Assembly (NCBI GenBank): GCA_036689235.1
Contig: CP144769.1
Span: 207,865 to 239,864 of the forward strand
Origin: Candidatus Saccharimonadota bacterium
Lineage (GTDB): Bacteria > Pseudomonadota > Gammaproteobacteria > Enterobacterales > Enterobacteriaceae
DNA length: 32,000 nt
Direction: 5' to 3'
The position numbers and the translations under genes are program-made. Below, in pieces: positions 10,671 through 31,704 of the stretch. Within the stretch, counting starts at the first letter, position 1; each line of letters begins with the position of its first letter. The notes under the pieces are model-generated. The model searched no databases. It was given only the letters and a program-made list of their open reading frames with translations, and was not told the origin of the DNA.

Positions 10671-12158
10671 TTAATCATATAAAAAACTTTTTAATAAATA
10701 TGATCTACTAGGATGACGTAATTTACGTAAAGCTTTAGATTCTATTTGTCTTATTCTTTCTCTAGTAACATCAAATTGTTTACCAACTTCCTCTAATGTA
10801 TGATCACTATTCATATCTATACCAAAACGCATTTTTAAAACTTTAGCTTCTCTTGGAGTTAAACTAGATAAAACATTATTAGTTACAAATTTTAAACTTT
10901 CAGAAGTAGCTGATTCTAAAGGTAATTTTGAAGAAGAATCTTTTATAAAATCACTTAAATGTAAATCTTCATCTTCGCCAACAGGTGTTTCAATTGATAT
11001 AGGTTCTTTTGCTATTTTTAATATTTTCCTAATTTTATCTTTAGAAATAGACATATACATAGATAATTCATTAAGAGTAGGTTCTCTACCAATTTCTTGA
11101 AAAATTTTTCTAGATATTCTATTTAATTTATTTATTGTTTCAATCATATGAACTGGAATTCTAATAGTTCTAGCTTGATCAGCTATAGATCTAGTTATAG
11201 CTTGACGAATTCATCAAGTTGCATATGTAGAAAATTTATAACCTCTTTTATATTCAAATTTATCAACTGCTTTCATTAAACCAATATTTCCTTCTTGTAT
11301 TAAATCAAAAAATTGTAATCCTCTATTAGTATATTTTTTAGCAATAGAAATAACTAATCTTAAATTTGATTCAATCATTTTTTTTTTAGCTAATTTCGTT
11401 TTAATTTGACTATTTACTAAATATTTATTTATAATTTTAATATCTGATAAACTTAATTTATAATATTTTTCTATAAATAATAATTTTTTTAATTTAATTT
11501 TTAATTTATTTATTATTTTATTAAATTTATTAAATCAAAATTTATTATTTTTATTTATTTTATATATTCATATATAATTAGTTTTATAATTATTATAAAA
11601 ATAATAAAAAATCCTTTTAGGAATTGAACAATAATTAATACATAAATTATATATTTTTTTTTCTTCAATTTTTATATAATTTATTACATTATTAATTTTA
11701 CACAATAAAAAATTTAATTGTTTAGGAGCTAATTTAAATCTCATAAACAATTTTATTAATTTATTTAATTCATATACAGTATAAGGATGATTTATAGTAT
11801 ATTTATTTATAATTTTTAATAATAAAATATATTGAATATATAAACAATTAAATTTTCTTTTAATTATATTAAAATCTGAATATTTTAAATTTGATATATC
11901 TTTACTATTATAATTATAATTATAATTACTATTTATAAATGATAAATTATTTATTTTGTAATCAAAAAAACCCACTATTAAATCTGATAAACGTAATTTT
12001 CCTTTTTTTACTAAAGAATATTGACTTAAAAAAAAATATATAGATTTAAATAATTTAGCTAAATAAAATTGAGTTTTATATATACCTTTTTCAATACATT
12101 TAGCTATATTAATTTCATCATCTCTAGTTAATAAATTTACTGTATTTATTTCATTCAT
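10671..12158 (-). CDS. rpoD: RNA polymerase sigma-70 factor
   Basis: Track ORFs 10671-11147 and 11568-12158 are in one frame (495 aa). The junction translates to [78 protein letters not shown], with WW encoded TGA-TGA (complement of 11211-11216). Region 4 reads [29 protein letters not shown]. Confidence 0.95.
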
Positions 12159-12318: not shown

Positions 12319-14052
12319 TTATAAATTAAAATTTTTTAATTTTATTAAATTTCATACTTTTTTTTTTCTTTTAATATTTCATCCTAAAATAGATGATTTT
12401 AAATAATAATACTTAATTTTTTTATTAATTAAAAAAATTTTTAACTTATTTAAAATATTTAAAAAAACAATTTTTTCATTATTTTTCTTAATATATATAA
12501 AATCATTAATATATAAATATTCTATATAAAATTTAACTCTATAATTATTAAAATATTTTAAAATATTAAATATATTAATATTATTATTATTTAAACAAAT
12601 TCTAACAATTCTTAAAAATAAAGATAAAAAATATATATTTTTAAAATTAAATATATTATCTTTTAAATCTATAAAATTACATAAATATTTATATTTTAAT
12701 AATATACTTATCAAATAACGAAAAATATTTTTATTTTTTATAATTTTCTTATTAATAGAATAATTTTTTAATATACTAACTATTTTATTTTGGTTTAAAC
12801 CAATATTTTTAAATAATTTGTGATATAAAAAAATTTTTATTATAGGAGAATTAATTTTTTTTATAATAAATAAAAAATAATTTAAAAAATCAATTTTATT
12901 TTTATTAAATAAATAATTTTCATTTTTATAAAAAAAAAAAAATAATACTTTATATAAAGATATAGCATTATTAATTTTAATTTTAAAATTTAAAATACCA
13001 TAATTTTTAACAAATGAATCTGGATCTTCATTATTTTGTAAAAATATAAAATAACATTTTTTATTTTCATTAATATATTTTAATAATAAAAATGAAGTTT
13101 TTTTAATAGAAAATAAACCAGATTTATCACCATCATAACAAAATATAATTATATTAGTATAATAATATAAAAAATTAATTTGTCTATCACATATAGATGA
13201 ACCTAATAAACTTATTACATAATATATACCATATTTATTTAAAGTTATAACATCAAAAAAACCTTCTACAATTAAAATTTTTTCTAATTTAATTTTTCTT
13301 TTTTTTATAAAATTAAATCCATATAAACATTTATTTTTATTAAAATATAAATTTTTTTTAATATTTATATATTTATATTTATTATTAATATTTATAGAAC
13401 GACCACTAAAAGCTATAATTTTATTATATATATCATATATAGGAAATATAATTCTATTATATAAATTATCATAAATTTTATTATTAATTTTAACTAAAAA
13501 ACCTAATTTAATTAAAAAATTTAATTCATTATTATTAAATAATTTAAAAAAAATATTAACAATATTTTTAGAAGAATAACCAATAAAAAAATATTTTATT
13601 AAATTTAAATTAAGTCCTCTATTAAATAAAAAATTTTTTATATAATAATTATTATTATTAATTAATAAACATTTATGATAAATATAACCTAATTTAAACA
13701 TTAACTTAAAATAATATTTTTTTTTACTAATTATTTTTTTACTATTAAAAATACTATTTAATTTTAAATTTATTCCAGACATATTAGATAATTTTTTTAT
13801 ACTTTCTAAAAAACTTATATTATCAAAACGCATTAAAAAATTTATTACATTACCATAAGTTTTACATCCAAAACAATAATAATATTTTTTATCTTCATTA
13901 ACTATAAAAGAAGGATTTTTTTCTGAATGAAAAGGACAAATAGATATATATTTATTTCCAATTTTTTTTAAATTAATTCTTAAAGAAATTATTTCAACTA
14001 TATTAGTACAATATAAAACTCTATCTATAATATTACTAGAAATATAATTCAT
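12319..14052 (-). CDS. dnaG: DNA primase
   Basis: Track ORF 12379-14052 (557 aa) ends at TGA. Under table 4 the frame runs 20 more codons, with one further TGA, to TAA at 12319-12321 (577 aa). Zinc-ribbon motif CPFHSEKNPSFIVNEDKKYYYCFGCKTYGNVINF, Toprim region (LIVEGFFDVI, CYDGDKSG). Sits in rpsU-dnaG-rpoD order. Confidence 0.9.
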
Positions 14053-14378: not shown

Positions 14379-15395
14379 ATGATTATATTTGGTATAGAAA
14401 CATCATGTGATGAAACTAGTATAAGTTTATATAGTAATAAAAAAGGAATAATAATTAATGAAATATATAGTCAATCATATATACATTCAAAATATGGAGG
14501 TGTAGTTCCTAATATAGCATCAAAAAATCATTCTAAAAAAATTATAAAAATAATTAAAAAAGTAATAAAAAAAACATCAATTAATATAAAAAATATTAAA
14601 GCAATTGCATTTACAGCAGGACCAGGATTATCAAGTTCATTAATAATAGGTTCTACTGTAGCAAATACATTATCATTCTTATATAAAAAACCATGTATAC
14701 CTATAAATCATATAGAAGGACATATATTATCTATAATGATATCAAAAAGAAAACCAAAATTTCCTTTCATATCATTAATAACATCAGGAGCACATACAAT
14801 ATTAGCAATAATTTATAATTTTAATAAATATAAAATTATAGGAAATTGTTTAGATGATTCAGCAGGAGAAATATTAGACAAAATAGGAAATATAATAAAT
14901 TTAAAATATCCAGCAGGAGAAAAAATTTCAAAATTTGCAAAATATAAAAAAAATAAATATACCTTTCCAAAACCAATTATTTGAGATAAAAATAATTTTA
15001 ATTTTAGCTTTTCAGGCTTAAAAACACATATAATTAATTTTATAAAAAAAAACAAAATTACATTACAATTTAAATATGATATATCATATTCATTAGAAAA
15101 AACAATAATAGATATTTTAATTATAAAAACTATTAATGCAGCAAAAAAATATAATATAAAAAGAATTAGTATAGTTGGAGGAGTAAGTTCAAATATTAAA
15201 TTAAGAAAAAAAATGTATAAAAAAGCTAAAAAATATAAAATAAATACATTTTATCCTAATAAAAAATTATGTACAGATAATGCAGCTATGATAGCATATA
15301 CAGGATATATAAAATATATTACAAAAAAATTTAAAAAAAAAAATAATTTTTTAATAAAAATTAAACCTAATTGAAAAATAAATGAATTATTTTAA
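14379..15395 (+). CDS. tsaD: tRNA N6-adenosine threonylcarbamoyltransferase (Kae1/Gcp/YgjD family)
   Basis: Track ORF 14379-14984 continues through TGA codons to TAA at 15393-15395 (338 aa). Motifs: IFGIETSCDETS, GGVVPNIASKNH, FTAGPGLSSSLIIG, NHIEGH, VGGVSSN, CTDNAAMIA. Divergent from rpsU, as in E. coli. Confidence 0.92.
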
Positions 15396-16586
15396 TTTAT
15401 TTAAAAATAAATTTTTTAAAAAAAAATATATTTTTTTATATCTAATAAATCTTATTCTTCTACCTATTAATTTACCTTTATAACCTAATTTAATTAAATA
15501 CTTACTTTTTATACTATTAGTAATATTATAAATAATATATATATACTTTAATATAAAATATAAGATTTTAATTTTTAATGGCAAAAATATAATAACTTTA
15601 ATAAATTTATATAAAAAAAATAAAATCTTAGAATTTCTTCATACATTAATAATATTTAATAAATTTAAAAAAAATATAGATAATATTTTTTTTTTAAAAT
15701 AAAAAATTTTATGTAAAAAAAAATATATATATTTAAATATAATAAAAAATTTTTTTGGTAATTTTAATCTATTACAAAAATTTAAAATTAAATTTAATAT
15801 ATAATTTTTATTATAAAAATATTTTTTAGAAAATATTGAATAACCAAAAAAAGAAAATAAACAAATTAAATTAATTTCTAAACCTAATTTATAACTATTA
15901 AAATTATTAAATAATAATTTAAAATATTTTTTTAATTTTTTATTATTAAATATATAAAATATTTCAGGATAAATAAATTTATTTACACCATAAATATTTA
16001 ATAAATTAAAATAAATATATAAATTTCCTTTAGAAAAAACCTTTTTAGTTTCTAATCAAATTCTTTCTGGTTTTATATATAAAAGTTCTCCAGAAATAAC
16101 TATTTTTTTAATAAAATTTAAAGTTTTTTTATGAATATAAAAACCAAATTTTTTATAAAAAGAATAAATTTTAATAACTCTTAAAACTCTTAATGGATCA
16201 TCAGAAAAATGATGAGAAACATGTCTTATAATTTTATTTTTAATATCATTAATACCTCCAAAAAAATCATAATATATACCTTTTTTATAAGCTATAGCAT
16301 TTATAGTTAAATCTCTTCTATATAAATCATCTTTTAAAGTAATTTTTTTAGAAAAATTACATAAAAAACCTTTATATCCTTTACCTATTTTTTTTTCTTT
16401 ACGAGCTAATGCATATTCTTCATACGTGAGAGGATGTAAAAATACTGGAAAATATTTACCAATAGGTATAAAACCAAAATTTAACATTTGTTTATAAGAA
16501 GATCCTACTACAACTCAATCTCTATCTCTTATATTCAATTTTAATAATTTATCACGTACAGCTCCTCCAACAAGATAAATTTTCAT
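15387..16586 (-). CDS. cca: tRNA nucleotidyltransferase (CCA-adding enzyme)
   Basis: ATG at 16586. The frame continues through TGA codons, joining track ORFs 16056-16487 and 15387-15584. I translated every codon between them and found no TAA or TAG. 399 aa. N-terminus MKIYLVGGAVRDKLL, then DRDWVVVG, RRDLTINA, DPLRVLR. Confidence 0.88.
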
Positions 16587-21940: not shown

Positions 21941-23242
21941 ATGATAAACATAATTAAAAAAAAAATAAATATTTTATCAAGAAAATATAAAAAATTTTTA
22001 ATTGCATTTAGTGGTGGTATAGATTCAACTACATTATTACATAATTTAATAAAAAATAAAAATATAAAAAAAAAAAATATAAGAGCAATACATATAAATC
22101 ATAATTTATATAAAAATTCAAAAAAATGAGAAAAAAAATGTATTTATATATGTAAAAAATGAAATATAAAATTAATTATAAAAAATATATTTATAAATAA
22201 AAAAAATAATATAGAAAATAAATGTAGAAATAAAAGATATAAAATTTTATTAAAAAATTTAATAAATAATGAAATTTTATTAACAGCACATCATAAAAAT
22301 GATCAATGTGAAACAATATTATTATCAATAAAAAGAGGAAGTGGATTAGATGGTTTATCAGGAATTAAAAAAAAATATAAAATAAAAAAAAAAATTATCA
22401 TTAGACCTTTATTAAATATTGAAAAAAAAATAATAATAAAATATGCAAAAAAAAATAATTTAATTTGAATTAACGATAAAAGTAATAAAAATATTAAATT
22501 TGATAGAAATTTTATTAGAATAAAAATATTACCTAAAATAATTAAAAGATGACCATTTTTTTTAAATTCTTTAATAAGAGTTTCAAAAATATGTTTAAAA
22601 CAATCATTATTATTAGAATATTATATTAAAAAAAAATTTAAAAAAATATTATTTAAAAAAAAAAATATAAATATAAAATATTTAAATAAATGAAAAAAAG
22701 AAGAATGAATTTTAATATTAAGAAAATGAATTAAATTAAATAAAAAAAAAATGTTATCATATAAAAATATAAATATATTATTAAAAAATATAATTAAAAA
22801 AAAAAATGATAATTATTTTAAATTAATATTTAAAGAATTTATTATTTATAAATATAAAAATTTATTATTTTTAAAAAAAAAAAAAATAAATAAAAATTAT
22901 ACAATAATTTGAAAAAATATAAAAAAAAAAATAAAATTACCTAATAACATTGGTTATCTATATATAAAAAAAAATAAAAAAAATAAAATTAATGTAGTAA
23001 GGAAACCAAAAAAAAATGAAATAATATATATAAAATTTAATTATAAAGGATATATAAATTTATTAAATAAAAATATAAAAATTAAAAAAATATGACAAAA
23101 ATATAAAATATATCCATGAAAAAGAAATAATATTCCAATAATTTTTTATAATAAAAAACCAATAATATGTCCAAATATATTTAAAACAAAATATTCTAAA
23201 TCAAAAAATAATAATTATATAAATATAAAATTTAAAAAATAA
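21941..23242 (+). CDS. tilS: tRNA(Ile)-lysidine synthase
   Basis: Track ORF 21941-22129 continues through many TGA codons. I translated the whole frame to TAA at 23240-23242 (433 aa) and found no TAA or TAG. PP-loop LIAFSGGIDSTTLL, LLTAHHKNDQCETILL, IIRPLL. Confidence 0.88.
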
Positions 23243-25330: not shown

Positions 25331-25411
25331 ATAAAAATATATTTATTGATATATATATTTAATATTATATAATATAATCTATTATAATAATATTATAATA
25401 TTATTAAATAA

Positions 25412-25483
25412 AGGTCTATAGCTCAGCGGTAGAGCACACCCCTGATAAGGGTGAGGTCAGTGGTTCAAATCCTCTTAGACCTA
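25412..25483 (+). tRNA. tRNA-Ile (anticodon GAU)
   Basis: AGGTCTA-TA-GCTC-AGCGGTA-GAGC-A-CACCC-CTGATAA-GGGTG-AGGTC-AGTGG-TTCAAAT-CCTCT-TAGACCT-A. Perfect acceptor stem, one T:T mismatch in the T stem. No CCA is encoded. Confidence 0.88.
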
Positions 25484-25493
25484 TAATTAAAAT

Positions 25494-25566
25494 AGGGATA
25501 TAGTTTAATCTGGTAGAACGATGGTCTCCAAAATCATAAGTTAGGGTTCAAATCCTTATATCCCTG
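25494..25566 (+). tRNA. tRNA-Trp (anticodon CCA)
   Basis: AGGGATA-TA-GTTT-AATCTGGTA-GAAC-G-ATGGT-CTCCAAA-ATCAT-AAGT-TAGGG-TTCAAAT-CCTTA-TATCCCT-G. Overall similar to E. coli tRNA-Trp (AGGGGCG..GUUC..GAGC..CUCCAAA). D-stem pair 11:24 is U:A. No CCA is encoded. Confidence 0.9.
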
Positions 25567-25594
25567 ATAAAAAAAAATATTTATATTAAATTTT

Positions 25595-25834
25595 ATGAAT
25601 AAAAAAAAAATTTTTAAAGAAATTAATAAGTTTATAAAAAAAGAAATAAATTCAGTTTTAAATAAACATAATGGATCATTAAAATTATTAAATATAGATA
25701 AAAATAATAATATTTTATTAAAATTTGAAGGTAATTGTAATTTATGTAATTTTAAAGAAAATACATTCACAAATTTTATATTAAATAAATTAAAAATTAA
25801 TTTTCCAGAAATTAATAATATAAATTATAAATAA
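25595..25834 (+). CDS. Nfu/NifU C-terminal-domain Fe-S cluster carrier protein (single domain)
   Basis: 79-aa ORF. INSVLNKHNGSLKLLNIDKNNNILLKFEGNCNLCNF resembles the Nfu domain (irP.l..hGG...l.ei....v.l.f.GgC.gC) with a CxxC pair. Confidence 0.7.
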   Translation: MNKKKIFKEINKFIKKEINSVLNKHNGSLKLLNIDKNNNILLKFEGNCNLCNFKENTFTNFILNKLKINFPEINNINYK

Positions 25835-25842
25835 AATTTTAA

Positions 25843-26693: not shown

Positions 26694-29246
26694 ATGTTTA
26701 AAAAATATAATTTATTTAATAAAGAAAAAAAAATATATAATTATTGAAAAAATAATAATTTTTTTAATCCTAATACAAATAATAAAAAAAATAATAATTT
26801 TTCTATAATTATGCCTCCTCCTAATATTACTGGTAATTTACATATAGGACATGCTTTTCAACAAACTATTATTGATATAATAGTAAGATACAATAAAATG
26901 AAAGGTAAAAATATTTTATGAATAATGGGAACAGACCATGCAGGTATATCAACACAAATTTTGGTAGAAAATTATCTTAAAAAAAAAAAAATAAAATTAT
27001 CAAAAAAAAAAATAATAAAAGAATTATGAAAATGAAAAAAAAAATATGAAAATAAAATTAATAAACAAACAAAATTAATAGGAAGTTCTATATATTGAAA
27101 AAAAACATTTTTTTCTTTAGATAAAAAATTTAAATATGCTGTAAAAAAAGCTTTTATAAAATTATATAATAAAAATTTAATATATAAAAAAAAAAAAATA
27201 ATTAATTGAGATAAAAATATAAAATGTTCATTATCTAATTTAGAAATTAATACTAAATTTAAAAAAGTAAAAAATTATTTTATAAAACTTAAAATATTTA
27301 AAAAAAATAAATATATAATAATATCTACTACTAAACCAGAAAAAATATTATCTATAACTGCATTAATAATTAATAATAATAATAAATTTTTAATAAATCC
27401 AATAACAAAAAAATTAATTAAAATAATAAAAAAAAAAAATATCAAAAATAAAAAATATATAAAAATAATTCCAAATTATTATAATAAAGATTTTAAATTT
27501 GCTAAAAAAAATAAATTAAAATTAATAAATGTATTTAATAAAAATGGAAACATTAATAATAATATAAAAATATATAATTATAAAAATAATAAAAAAAAAT
27601 ATTTAAAATTTAAGAATTTAAATTGAATTAAAAATAAAAATTATTTAATAGCAAGAAAAAAAATAATTAATTTTTTAAAAAAAAAAAAATTAATAAAAAA
27701 AATAAAATATAAATATATAAAAATTAAATATAGTAATAAAACAAACTCTATTGTTTTACCAATATTAACTAATCAATGATATTTAAAAATTTCTAAAATA
27801 TCAAAAAAAATAATAAAAAATATAAAAAAAAAAAAAATATTAATATTTCCAAAAAAATATGAAAAATTATTTTTCTACTGAATAAAAAATATAAAAGATT
27901 GATGTATATCAAGACAAATATATTGAGGACATAAAATACCTATTTGATATGATAATAATGGAAATAAATATGTAGGATATAATATAAAATATATAAAAAA
28001 AAAATATCCACATTTAAAAAATAAAAAATTAAAACAAGATAAGAATATTTTAGATACATGATTTTCATCTTCATTATGAAGTTTTACATCATTAGGATGA
28101 CCTAAAAAAAAAAATAAATTAAAAAAATTTCATCCTTTAAATTTAATAGTAAGTGGTTTTGATATAATTTATTTTTGAATTTGTCGTATGATAATAATGA
28201 CATTACTTTTAATTAAAAAAAAAAAAAAAATACAATTACCATTTAAAAAAATATTAATAACTGGGTTAATAAGAGATGAAAATGGTAAAAAAATGTCTAA
28301 ATCTTTAGGAAATGTAATAGAAATATCAGATTTAATAAAAGGAATAACTTTAAAAAAATTATTAAAAAAAAGAATTAAGAATTTAATTAATAATAATAAA
28401 ATAAATAAAATAATAAAAAATACAAAAAAATTTTTTCCTAAAGGAATTAAACCAAATAAAATTGATACAATAAGATTTTATTTAACATCTATATATAATT
28501 CAACATTAAAAATTAATTTTAATAGAAATGAACTAATTTTTGCATATAATTATTGTAATAAATTATGAAATGTTTGTATATACATTTTTGATATATTAAA
28601 AATAAATAAAAAAAAAATATATAATAAAATTAATATTAATAAATTAATATTAATAGAAAAAATAATTTTATATAAATTTAATAATTTAATATTAAAATTT
28701 AATAAAAATATAAAATTATTTAAATTTAATTTATTATGTAAAAATATTTTTAATTTTTTAAAAAATTATTTTTGTGATTGATATATAGAATCAATAAAAT
28801 TAATAAAAATAAATAAAAATAATAAATTATTTTTAATTTATATAATTAAAAATTTTCTAAAAATATCACATATAATAATACCATTTATTACAGAATATAT
28901 ATGAAAAAAAAATTATAAAAATTCAATCTTAAAAGAAAAATTTCCTAGTATAAAATTTAAATTAAATAATTTAAAAAAAAATAAAAAAATATTTATTTTA
29001 TTAAAAAAAATTATATTAACTATAAGAAATTTAATAAAAATAAATAACAATAAATTAATAAAAAAATTATTCATATTAAATTTAAATTTAGAACAAAAAA
29101 AAAATATACTAAAAAATAAATATTTATTTAAAATTACAAAAATAAATAATATACTTTTTTTTAAAAAAAAAAATTTTTTAAATACATATAAAAATAATAA
29201 AATATTTTTTATTAAAAAAAATATTTACATATCTATAAGCGAGTAA
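26694..29246 (+). CDS. valS: Valyl-tRNA synthetase
   Basis: ATG at 26694. I translated the whole frame to TAA at 29244-29246 (850 aa) and found about 19 in-frame TGA and no TAA or [25 protein letters not shown] (HIGH), [61 protein letters not shown]. Track ORF 28188-28568 is an internal fragment. Confidence 0.94.
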
Positions 29247-29309
29247 CGGGATTCGAACCCGTATCTTCAGCTTGGAAGGCTAAAATAATAACCATTATAA
29301 AATACTCGC
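29238..29309 (-). tRNA. tRNA-Gly (anticodon UCC)
   Basis: GCGAGTA..AATGGTT..TTAGC-CTTCCAA-GCTGA-AGAT-ACGGG-TTCGAAT-CCCGT-TACTCGC-T. Colinear with E. coli glyT. Weak A/T-only D stem. No CCA is encoded. Confidence 0.85.
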
Positions 29310-29324
29310 AAAAAAAAAATAAAA

Positions 29325-29409
29325 TGGTGGGAGAAGGATTTGAACCTTCGAAGTTATAAATAACAACAGATTTACAGTCTGTCTCCTTTAACCACTCGGA
29401 AATCCCACC
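29325..29409 (-). tRNA. tRNA-Tyr (anticodon GUA), class II with long variable arm
   Basis: GGTGGGATTTCCGAGTGGTTAAAGGAGACAGACTGTAAATCTGTTGTTATTTATAACTTCGAAGGTTCAAATCCTTCTCCCACCA (85 nt). Colinear with E. coli tRNA-Tyr. Confidence 0.9.
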
Positions 29410-29415
29410 TTATAA

Positions 29416-29488
<73 letters not shown>

Positions 29489-29493
29489 AAAAA

Positions 29494-29566
29494 TGGAGTT
29501 AAGCGGAATTGAACCGCTAACCTTCTACTTGCAAAACAGATGCTCTACCATTTGAGCTATAACCCC
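29494..29566 (-). tRNA. tRNA-Ala (anticodon UGC)
   Basis: GGGGTTA-TA-GCTC-AAATGGTA-GAGC-A-TCTGT-TTTGCAA-GTAGA-AGGTT-AGCGG-TTCAATT-CCGCT-TAACTCC-A. The G3:U70 alanine identity pair is present. Confidence 0.9.
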
Positions 29567-29829
29567 AAATAATTTAAAATTATTATTTTAAATAAATATA
29601 TTAAATATAAATATATCATATATTTTATATATTATATATTATTTTTTTTTAAAATATTACAAATAAAATAATATATAAAAAATTAAAATAATTTAGATAC
29701 TTAAAATAATAATTTTAATATTTTATAAAAAAAAAATAAAATATATTAAAATATATTAGTTATTTTTTTTTTAATTTTTAATAATATAATAAAAATTTAA
29801 AAAAAAATATTAATTAATAAATATATTAT

Positions 29830-31704
29830 TTAAATTAATTTATTTTTTTTTATATATATTAAGATAGATATTATTGAAGCAGGAGTAATTCCTGAAATAT
29901 TATATATATCACTTAAATAAATAAATTTATGTTTATATTTATTTAATTTCTGTTTTATTTCATTAGAAATATTAGGTATTAAATTAAAATTTATATTTTT
30001 AGATAAAATTATATTTTTATAAAAATTTAATTTTAATATTTCTATTTTCTGTTTATTTATATATCCATTATATTTTATAAGTATTTTAGTTTCTTTTAAA
30101 AATTTTTTTTTTATTTTATTAATATCAAATTCTTTTATTATTTTATTTAAAGATAATGAATAATTACATATTAAAGATTTTATACTTATTTTTTTATTTA
30201 AATATTTATTTAAAAAATATTTTTTCATAATATTTTTATGCTTTTTTTTTATAAACACAAATTTATTTTTTAAATATTTATAATTATTATTAATAATATT
30301 AATTTTTTTTAAAAAATATTTTCATTTATTTTCATTAATTAATTTTAATTTATATGCATATGGAGTTAATCTATAATCAGCATTATCTTCTCTTAAAAAT
30401 AATCTATATTCAGATCTTGAAGTAAACATTCTATATGGTTCATCAATTCCTTTATAACATAAATCATCTATTAATACCCCTATATATGAATTTAATCTAT
30501 TAAATATAAAATTAGATTTATTATTTATTTTTAATCCTGCATTTATACCAGCAACTAATCCTTGAGCTGCAGCTTCTTCATATCCAGTAGTACCATTTAT
30601 TTGTCCTGCAAAAAATAAATTATTTATTATTTTACTTTCTAAATTTAAATTTAATTTTTTTGGATTAAAATACATATATTCAACAGCATATCCTGGTTTA
30701 ATAATTTTTGAGTTTTCTAAACCTTTAATAGTTCTAATAAATTTAATTTGTATATTAATAGGTAAACTAGTAGATATCCCATTAGGATATATAATTTTAC
30801 TAAATAATCCTTCTTTTTCTAAAAATATATTATGACTATTTTTATTAGGAAAATTAACTATTTTATCTTCTATTGAAGGACAATATCTAGGACCTATACC
30901 AATTATATTACCATTATATAAAGGACTATATTTTAAATTATCTTTAATTATATTATGAGTTTTTTTATTAGTATTTGTTATATAACATTTTATTTGAGGT
31001 AAATAATTATATTTTTTTAAATTGCTAAAAAAAGAAAAATAACCATTTTTATTACCTTTTTGTTTTTCTAAAACTTTATAATTTATAGAATCTTTTAATA
31101 TTCTTGGTGGAGTACCTGTTTTTAAATAACCAAATTTAAAAGGATATTTTTGTAAAAAATTTGCTAATTTATAAGAAGAATGATCGTTAATTCTTCCTCC
31201 AATTTTAATTTTATTTCCTATAAAAATCTTAGAATTTAAAAAAGTACCAGTAGTTAATATAACAATTTTACTATATATTTTTTTATTTAATAATGTTACA
31301 ACACCATTAATATAATTATTTTTATTAATAATTAAATTTATAACTTCATCTTGATAAATTGTTATATTTTTAATTTTTTTTATTATACGTAAAGAATTAT
31401 ATTTATATAAATTTTTATCTATTTGTACTCTAGTTGATCTAACAGCTTCACCTTTACTTAAATTTAAAATTTTATATTGTATACAAGATAAATCCGCTAA
31501 TTTAGCTATTAATCCACCAAATGCATCAATTTCCTTTACTAAATGACTTTTTCCTAAACCTCCGATAGAAGGATTACATGACATTTTTCCTATATTATTA
31601 ATATTATAAGTAATTAATAAAACTTTTTTAACCATTTTAGAAGAAATATAACTTGCTTCTATACCAGCATGTCCTCCACCAACTATAATTATATCAAAAA
31701 ACAT
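29830..31704 (-). CDS. mnmG: tRNA uridine 5-carboxymethylaminomethyl modification enzyme MnmG (GidA)
   Basis: Track ORFs 29830-30258 and 30322-31704 are in frame (624 aa) and joined through one TGA. N-terminal FAD fold FDIIIVGGGHAGIEAS, MSCNPSIGGLGKSHLVKEIDAFGG, TGTPPR, GPRYCPSIEDK, FAGQINGTTGYEEAAAQG. An AAGG lies 5 nt upstream of the ATG. Confidence 0.95.

Follow-up and report, generated by a model that had tools for sequence, protein, structure and literature searches.

The tryptophan tRNA of the bacterial symbiont Candidatus Stammera capleta has been found in the current analysis to carry the base pair U11:A24, the state of the classical Hirsh suppressor of UGA, both in strains that read UGA as tryptophan and in strains that use the standard code. 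As the pair is common to standard-code and recoded strains, it cannot be what distinguishes the recoded strains, and the comparison of the tRNA genes suggests that A24 is at most a permissive pre-adaptation and not the recoding switch. Additional changes in the body of the tRNA, in the D loop and at pair 27:43, are associated with the reading of UGA.

The recoding of Stammera with a CCA anticodon only is already published. The Hirsh pair in its tRNA-Trp, the fact that this pair predates the recoding, and the further body changes in the recoded lineages appear to be new; in the searchable literature there is no mention of A24 in Stammera or of a comparison between the tRNA-Trp of its code-4 and code-11 strains. 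For Stammera there has been no answer to the question of what makes a CCA anticodon sufficient when about 95% of the Trp codons of a genome are UGA.

Source of the DNA and use of UGA as a tryptophan codon

The window, by which is meant the whole stretch of 32,000 nucleotides that was analysed, has a G+C content of 13.0% and belongs to a recoded strain of Candidatus Stammera capleta, a pectin-digesting symbiont of tortoise beetles. The ProS protein encoded in the window is 100% identical to a protein of GCA_015142155.1, and 40 Stammera ProS proteins share 82-47% identity with it, after which the identity drops to 39% (Buchnera and others). The gene order is Enterobacterales-like (trxA-rho, tsaD/rpsU-dnaG-rpoD, frr-uppS-bamA and tilS-proS), and the order of genes and tRNAs matches that of the deposited Candidatus Stammera capleta genomes. 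Zinderia insecticola was considered as a source in view of the 13% G+C of the window and UGA as a Trp codon, and was rejected on the basis of its different tRNA-Trp sequence and the Enterobacterales-like gene order of the window.

In larger Stammera genomes efp/nifU and leuS have as their flanking genes pepA and a pair encoding a response regulator and a histidine kinase. These flanking genes have been seen in L127, L128, L130, L131, L133 and L256 and are absent from the window at 25567-25842 and 29247-29830, which illustrates the ongoing gene loss in this 240-kb lineage.

The genome from which the window comes reads UGA as tryptophan. Under the standard code the genes of the window are fragmented, and the open reading frames are continuous only with TGA read through. 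With TGA taken as a sense codon, all the 22 ORFs of at least 100 residues end in TAA, and UGA is not a stop. UGA is by far the preferred Trp codon, as had been claimed in the original prediction, with 70 in-frame TGA against 4 TGG in the 17 long ORFs. On alignment with the orthologues of standard-code Stammera, 174 of 205 TGA codons of the window stand opposite TGG. Columns with TGG in all the standard-code strains are occupied in the recoded strains by TGA (204 times), TGG (19) and other codons (20). TGG is still present at 19 of the 223 conserved Trp codons of the recoded strains, and since these strains still use it, one tRNA-Trp must read both UGG and UGA.

No special 3' context of UGA is evident in the window, with A following 54% of the UGA codons as compared to 51% of all codons. 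The gene leuS (26694-29246, + strand) has 19 in-frame UGA and no UGG and is an essential gene that depends on the decoding of UGA. Another gene with many such codons is tilS (21941-23242, + strand), which encodes the tRNA-Ile lysidine synthetase with PF01171 and PF11734 domains and has 10 in-frame UGA. The Cys codons of the long ORFs are TGT in 105 cases and TGC in none.

The tRNA-Trp gene and its neighbourhood

The gene of tRNA-Trp with anticodon CCA is 73 nt long and is situated at 25494-25566 on the + strand (AGGGATATAGTTTAATCTGGTAGAACGATGGTCTCCAAAATCATAAGTTAGGGTTCAAATCCTTATATCCCTG). It is one of nine tRNA genes of the window, and has been identified by ARAGORN, which calls tRNA-Trp(cca) at 25493-25567 (+), by Rfam family RF00005, which matches 25494-25566 (64.4 bits, E-value 5.6e-12), and by synteny in 13 Stammera genomes. 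Direct reading of the sequence gives an acceptor of AGGGATA/TATCCCT and the discriminator G73; U8, A9 and G26 are present in the structural parse. The 5' strand of the D stem is G10 U11 U12 U13 (25503-25506, +; sequence read and structural parse) and the 3' strand is G22 A23 A24 C25 (25516-25519, +; sequence read). The D stem is GUUU/GAAC, and pair 11:24, with T at 25504 and A at 25518, is U:A, the Hirsh state. The CCA anticodon together with U11:A24, on which the original prediction was built, is borne out by ARAGORN, Rfam and the sequence read.

The D loop at 25507-25515 (+) has 9 nt in the structural parse, AATCTGGTA, or AAUCUGGUA in RNA letters. Its extra base lies at about 25510-25511, before G18-G19, and is not found in standard-code Stammera or E. 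coli. The anticodon arm at 25521-25537 (+; sequence read and structural parse) is composed of the stem ATGGT/ATCAT and the loop CTCCAAA, with the anticodon C34 C35 A36 at 25528-25530. The stem has five pairs, namely A27:U43, U28:A42, G29:C41, G30.U40 and U31:A39, and an anticodon stem of four base pairs is ruled out as an explanation for the window. A variable region of 4 nt and a T arm of UAGGG-UUCAAAU-CCUUA complete the structure. The CCA end is absent from the gene sequence. Since CCA ends are not encoded in the tRNA genes, a gene for the CCA-adding enzyme is needed, and cca is found as an ORF at 15387-16586 on the - strand; the identical gene in L125 has PF01743 (PolyA_pol) and PF12627.

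A tRNA-Ile(GAU) gene (25412-25483, +; ARAGORN and Rfam) is located 10 nt upstream of tRNA-Trp and the two are probably co-transcribed. The genes of hinT, tRNA-Ile(GAU) and tRNA-Trp(CCA) occupy the same place in all the 13 Stammera loci. Upstream of the tRNA pair is a promoter-like site, TTGATA-16-TATAAT, at 25346-25373 (+) with 11 of 12 matches; 14 such sites were found against 8.2 +/- 3.1 expected, which makes it weak evidence in DNA of 87% A+T. An ORF of 79 residues with a NifU domain (25595-25834, +) begins 29 nt past tRNA-Trp on the same strand, and this promoter-like site may serve for its co-transcription with the two tRNAs. Elsewhere in the window, tRNA-Gly(UCC) at 29238-29309 (-) has a mismatched D stem in the ARAGORN drawing, and the leuS ORF of the opposite strand runs into this gene with its last 9 nt.

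Codon use and kinship of thirteen Stammera loci

The syntenic 21-kb region has been taken from 12 further Stammera genomes with ProS homologues as handles, and the loci were classed by the counts of TGA and TGG in their long ORFs. Seven loci are heavily recoded: the window (TGA/TGG 70/4), L123 (CP144856, 57/3), L124 (CP144796, 57/10), L127 (CP144853, 59/3), L134 (CP144810, 54/2), L135 (CP144808, 51/7) and L257 (CP144848, 46/6). The standard code is used in L128 (CP144774, 3/64), L130 (CP144777, 4/63), L131 (CP144787, 1/62), L132 (CP144793, 0/59) and L133 (CP144771, 2/60). L256 (CP144790, GCA_036689315.1) is lightly recoded, with counts of 5/48 and a UGA share of about 9% of the Trp codons of the locus. 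Aligned genes contain four of its in-frame TGA, each of which is at a conserved Trp column.

Kinship of the strains was derived from a neighbour-joining tree of six proteins with bootstraps. The recoded strains form one clan in 71 of 100 bootstraps, and with more taxa in 111 of 200. Of these strains the main six are together in 200 of 200 bootstraps, with L127 added to them in 111. In 178 of 200 bootstraps L256 is grouped with L131 and L132, a pair of standard-code strains. According to the gTranslate preprint (10.64898/2026.05.24.727570), five basal Stammera genomes have code 11 and have kept prfB, and GCA_036689315.1 has code 4 though it is near the code-11 genomes; a larger tree in the same preprint sets it beside the code-11 clade without support. 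The number of independent recoding events in Stammera is about one or two, and at most two or three.

The release factor RF2 is absent from most of the recoded Stammera. Stammera has been described as a code-4 symbiont that keeps trnW(CCA) and is without prfB (PMC10540940), and in a survey every one of 49 Stammera genomes has tRNA-Trp(CCA), none has tRNA-Trp(UCA) and 15 have prfB (PMC13462651, Table 2), the five of code 11 being among these 15. Some recoded Stammera still carry prfB (PMC13462651 and the preprint). The loss of RF2, which the original prediction had named as a condition, is borne out for the majority of the recoded strains. The window with its flanks, about 35 kb out of about 240 kb of the genome, contains no prfB.

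Two other differences have been observed among these loci. In three standard-code strains tRNA-Leu(CAA) adjoins tRNA-Gly(UCC) (L128:1667-1749(-), L130:1824-1906(-) and L132:3249-3330(-)), and it is missing from this place in the window (about 29230-29320) and in every recoded locus. It is possible that the lineages differ in a second tRNA as well, by the loss of this C34 tRNA for the G-ending codon UUG. The tilS gene of the standard-code strain L131 (CP144787.1) seems to be split into two ORFs at 11675-12058 and 12782-12973, with pieces of 127 residues (TilS_C) and 63 residues (ATP-binding), and the decoding of AUA in that strain would then need an explanation.

Pair U11:A24 is shared by recoded and standard-code strains

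The mutation G24A of E. coli tRNA-Trp results in U11:A24 and allows UGA reading (PMC7954030, PMC11805395), the hinge region being made to flex or bend differently (PMC7954030, PMC11805395, PMC13092985). The identification of A24 with the Hirsh state agrees with this literature. E. coli trpT has U11.G24, as had been assumed; the reference sequence matches 5,426 of 5,426 complete E. coli genomes, and the three listed E. coli trpT records are 100% identical and annotated as tRNA-Trp.

U11:A24 is present in the tRNA-Trp genes of all the 13 Stammera loci regardless of code. It had been proposed that A24 is the feature that explains the recoding; the same pair is however found in five of five standard-code lineages, and when position 24 was compared, A24 proved to be equally common in the standard-code relatives L128, L130, L131, L132 and L133. 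What stands of the earlier reading is that UGA is tryptophan, that the only tRNA-Trp known in the genus has a CCA anticodon and that it is in the Hirsh state, while A24 as the cause is not supported. From the distribution of the pair, A24 is ancestral to the genus Stammera.

The prediction had contrasted A24 with E. coli only. E. coli does differ, but U11:A24 is not rare elsewhere. A background sample of 117 tRNA-Trp(CCA) genes was collected from metagenome contigs using a pattern that ignores the D arm, and pair 11:24 is C:G in 107 of them, U:A in 7 and U.G in 1. Among 119 tRNA-Trp(CCA) genes of viral contigs the pair is C:G in 97, U:A in 19 and U.G in 3. U11:A24 is thus present in 6-16% of the sampled tRNA-Trp(CCA) genes. 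The partner of U11 is A in 26 of 30 sampled genes, and U.G of E. coli is the odd one out. A change of G24 to A fits an A+T mutation bias and converts a wobble pair into a Watson-Crick pair. In nature U11 is usually paired with A, and the Hirsh-state pair by itself therefore calls for caution and is no evidence of suppression.

These observations bear directly on the explanation that A24 is itself the switch, in which a constitutively Hirsh-type tRNA-Trp turns UGA into a Trp codon. The pair is present and G24A is the classical UGA-suppressor change, as this explanation expects; but the five standard-code lineages with U11:A24 use TGG and three of their five loci (L128, L130 and L133) have ORFs that end in TGA, and the pair is common in ordinary bacteria and phages. 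We regard this explanation as quite improbable. A24 is evidently tolerated alongside RF2. It is not sufficient for recoding and may be neutral, or it may contribute as a permissive background.

Features of tRNA-Trp that follow the genetic code

Two features of the tRNA body are associated with the reading of UGA. The D loop has 9 nt, with the pattern AAU-Y-N-GGUA, in seven of seven heavily recoded lineages, as against 7-8 nt in the five standard-code lineages and 8 nt in L256 and in E. coli. The extra nucleotide is therefore found in 7/7 heavily recoded and 0/6 other Stammera lineages, and its neighbours G18-G19 make up the elbow together with the T loop. In all five standard-code lineages pair 27:43 is U:A, and in E. 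coli it is C:G. In the heavily recoded lineages it is A:U in five, G.U in L134 and U:A in L127. With the unpaired U27.U43 of L256, four states are found in UGA-reading lineages as compared to one in the five code-11 lineages.

The tRNA-Trp of L256 (9308-9381(-)) has, besides U27.U43, the pair G30.U40 and A24. From its sequence it can be described as a tRNA with a 4-bp anticodon stem on the A24 background, and L256 looks like an early or independent stage of recoding that has used the 4-bp-stem solution.

Comparison of the nine tRNAs common to the 13 loci singles out tRNA-Trp. It has 29 variable columns as against 7-23 in the others, and its identity between the code groups is 0.81, the other shared tRNAs having 0.91-0.95. 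The D-loop insertion is the only code-diagnostic column in any of the nine. By these measures tRNA-Trp is the fastest-evolving of the shared tRNAs, both within and between the code groups. Since the recoded strains form one clan, the D-loop association amounts to about one evolutionary event, and the D-loop and 27:43 correlates are leads from one or two evolutionary events and not proof. D loops of 9 nt are also present in 17 of the 117 background metagenome genes, though in none of the seven genes of that sample that have U11:A24.

A third feature, a G.U pair in the anticodon stem (G30.U40 or G27.U43), was found in 6/6 recoded against 0/5 standard-code strains among the first 11 genomes. It has been ruled out as a correlate of recoding by L257, in which recoding goes together with an anticodon stem of Watson-Crick pairs only, and by the frequent occurrence of G.U pairs in other tRNAs of both codes.

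The main rival explanation, which also concerns these features, holds that RF2 loss by itself suffices. Without a competing release factor every tRNA-Trp(CCA) would read UGA slowly through near-cognate pairing while the ribosomes wait, and A24 and the D-loop and 27:43 changes would be drift, neutral or slightly deleterious in a fast-evolving A+T-biased genome. Wild-type E. coli tRNA-Trp is indeed described as reading UGA at low efficiency (work cited in PMC12213064). The presence of A24 in code-11 strains, the recoding of L257 with a fully paired anticodon stem, the variation of D-loop length and stem G.U pairs in other tRNAs and the small number of independent recoding events, only about one or two, all speak for drift. 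This explanation does not account for the way in which tRNA-Trp is singled out among the nine tRNAs in variability, between-code identity and the code-diagnostic column, nor for the four states of pair 27:43 in UGA-reading lineages as against one in code-11 lineages. Genes with as many as 19 UGA, such as leuS, need near-complete reading at each of them, and prfB is still carried by some recoded Stammera. Loss of RF2 alone is an unlikely explanation, though it deserves serious consideration.

Reading of UGA by a tRNA with a CCA anticodon

UGA is almost certainly read by the one tRNA-Trp(CCA), with a mismatch of C34 and A. The anticodon is CCA in all the 13 Stammera loci, and tRNA-Trp(UCA) has not been found in the window or the 12 other loci. 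As no tRNA-Trp(UCA) is present in any sequenced Stammera, the CCA tRNA must read UGA; and with RF2 lost from most recoded Stammera, little or nothing competes with it for this codon. This one tRNA must serve UGG as well as UGA, and on UGA its C34 would face the A of the third codon position in a near-cognate pairing.

The existence of a cognate tRNA-Trp(UCA) elsewhere in the genome, or its import from the host, has been considered, as only about 35 kb of the genome of about 240 kb was scanned. No such tRNA is reported from any Stammera genome in two independent surveys (PMC13462651 and the preprint) or in PMC10540940, and the import of tRNAs into bacteria is not established. We find a cognate tRNA of this kind hardly credible.

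A different solution would be a chemical modification of C34, to a lysidine-like, acetyl or formyl derivative that pairs with A, in which case the body of the tRNA would be irrelevant. This is compatible with the sequence. The gene of tilS, the sole C34-modifying enzyme encoded in the window, is kept near tRNA-Trp at 21941-23242. TilS is needed anyway for the decoding of AUA, most code-11 strains carry it too, and the window shows no sign of an enzyme dedicated to such a modification. Lysidine at C34 would abolish the reading of UGG, and UGG is still used in the recoded strains. A modification of C34 is improbable on these grounds.

The account that we favour, and consider somewhat more likely than not, is that A24 is a permissive pre-adaptation on which second-site changes in the D loop and at pair 27:43 have raised the reading of UGA. 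On the A24 background a leaky tRNA-Trp would have made the loss of RF2 survivable, and the second-site changes may then have raised UGA reading to the level required for a genome-wide reassignment. In the heavily recoded lineages the candidate change is the one extra D-loop nucleotide just before G18-G19, and in the lightly recoded L256 it is the unpaired 27:43 on top of the anticodon stem. The analysis shows directly the states of the sequences, how they are distributed over the 13 genomes and the use of codons, and from these we infer the effects of A24, of the D-loop insertion and of the 27:43 changes on decoding. A broader wobble is described for E. coli and Blastocrithidia on disruption of pair 27:43 (PMC13092985).

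A more detailed order of events can be put forward tentatively, as a possibility. A24 would have been fixed while RF2 and UGA stops were in use. Different second-site changes would have followed in two separate lineages while RF2 decayed and UGA-Trp codons became more numerous, namely the D-loop insertion in the main clade and the unpaired 27:43 in GCA_036689315.1. The positions of these changes are among those at which the decoding by tRNA-Trp can be loosened, according to E. coli genetics. If this stepwise route is true, mutations of the tRNA body and not a change of the anticodon are the evolutionary driver, and Stammera is a test bed for the ambiguous-intermediate model. With standard-code, lightly recoded and heavily recoded strains that have a syntenic single-copy tRNA-Trp, Stammera is a rare natural series from which the order of tRNA body changes, RF2 loss and codon turnover can be read. 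It may be looked upon as a natural case of near-cognate UGA reading by a body-altered tRNA-Trp, in which a supporting role of A24 is plausible.

Comparison with known systems

The Stammera tRNA-Trp resembles the Hirsh suppressor (E. coli trpT G24A) in its CCA anticodon, U11:A24, A9 and anticodon loop of 7 nt. It differs in its D loop of 9 nt, its A+T-rich anticodon stem and its D stem, in which no more than one pair is G:C. The Stammera state is moreover natural and genus-wide, unlike the laboratory mutant, is known from sequence alone, and coexists with the standard code in sister lineages. Bacillus subtilis tRNA-Trp also has U11:A24, and UGA is read as Trp at a few per cent in this organism. 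Such natural low-level reading of UGA as tryptophan in B. subtilis is attributed to Lovett et al. 1991, as cited in PMC2704378. Unlike the strain of the window, B. subtilis has RF2 and the standard code, with no reassignment.

Zinderia insecticola and Fastidiosibacteraceae XS4 (PMC13092985, PMC12213064) are similar to the recoded Stammera in using UGA as tryptophan throughout the genome with a CCA anticodon and without tRNA-Trp(UCA). In a 2026 NAR paper the UGA reading of these two has been explained by an anticodon stem of 4 bp, and Stammera has been placed among the recoded bacteria with a 5-bp stem, the mechanism not being given (PMC13092985). The window differs from the 4-bp-stem class in its Watson-Crick pair A27:U43 and five stem pairs. 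The tRNA-Trp of Zinderia has C11:G24 and an A27/C43 mismatch (PMC13092985, supplementary table), unlike that of the window, and the published table has C11:G24 kept in both Carsonella and Zinderia, which are extremely A+T-rich. Only the lightly recoded L256 has an unpaired 27:43 like the Zinderia/XS4 class. The definition of the 4-bp-stem class excludes A9C and G24A (PMC13092985), and the window keeps A9 but has A24. A9C and/or G24A occur in 2,414 of 3,438 tRNA-Trp genes with a 4-bp stem, nearly all from standard-code bacteria (PMC13092985).

Mycoplasmatales, Hodgkinia and Nasuia share with Stammera the use of UGA as tryptophan, the loss of RF2 and small A+T-rich genomes. They have tRNA-Trp(UCA), unlike Stammera, in which the anticodon is unchanged. 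A distal mutation of tRNA-Trp that permits an A-C mismatch during recoding has been part of the model for Hodgkinia, with reference to Hirsh (PMC2704378).

A parallel to the early stage is provided by Candidatus Providencia siddallii PSAC, which is like Stammera a symbiont belonging to Enterobacterales that has kept trnW(CCA), with an early-stage use of UGA as tryptophan (PMC10540940). In the model proposed for PSAC, distal tRNA mutations allow the A-C mismatch (PMC10540940). PSAC keeps prfB and has few UGA-Trp codons, and in this it resembles the lightly recoded Stammera L256 rather than the strain of the window.
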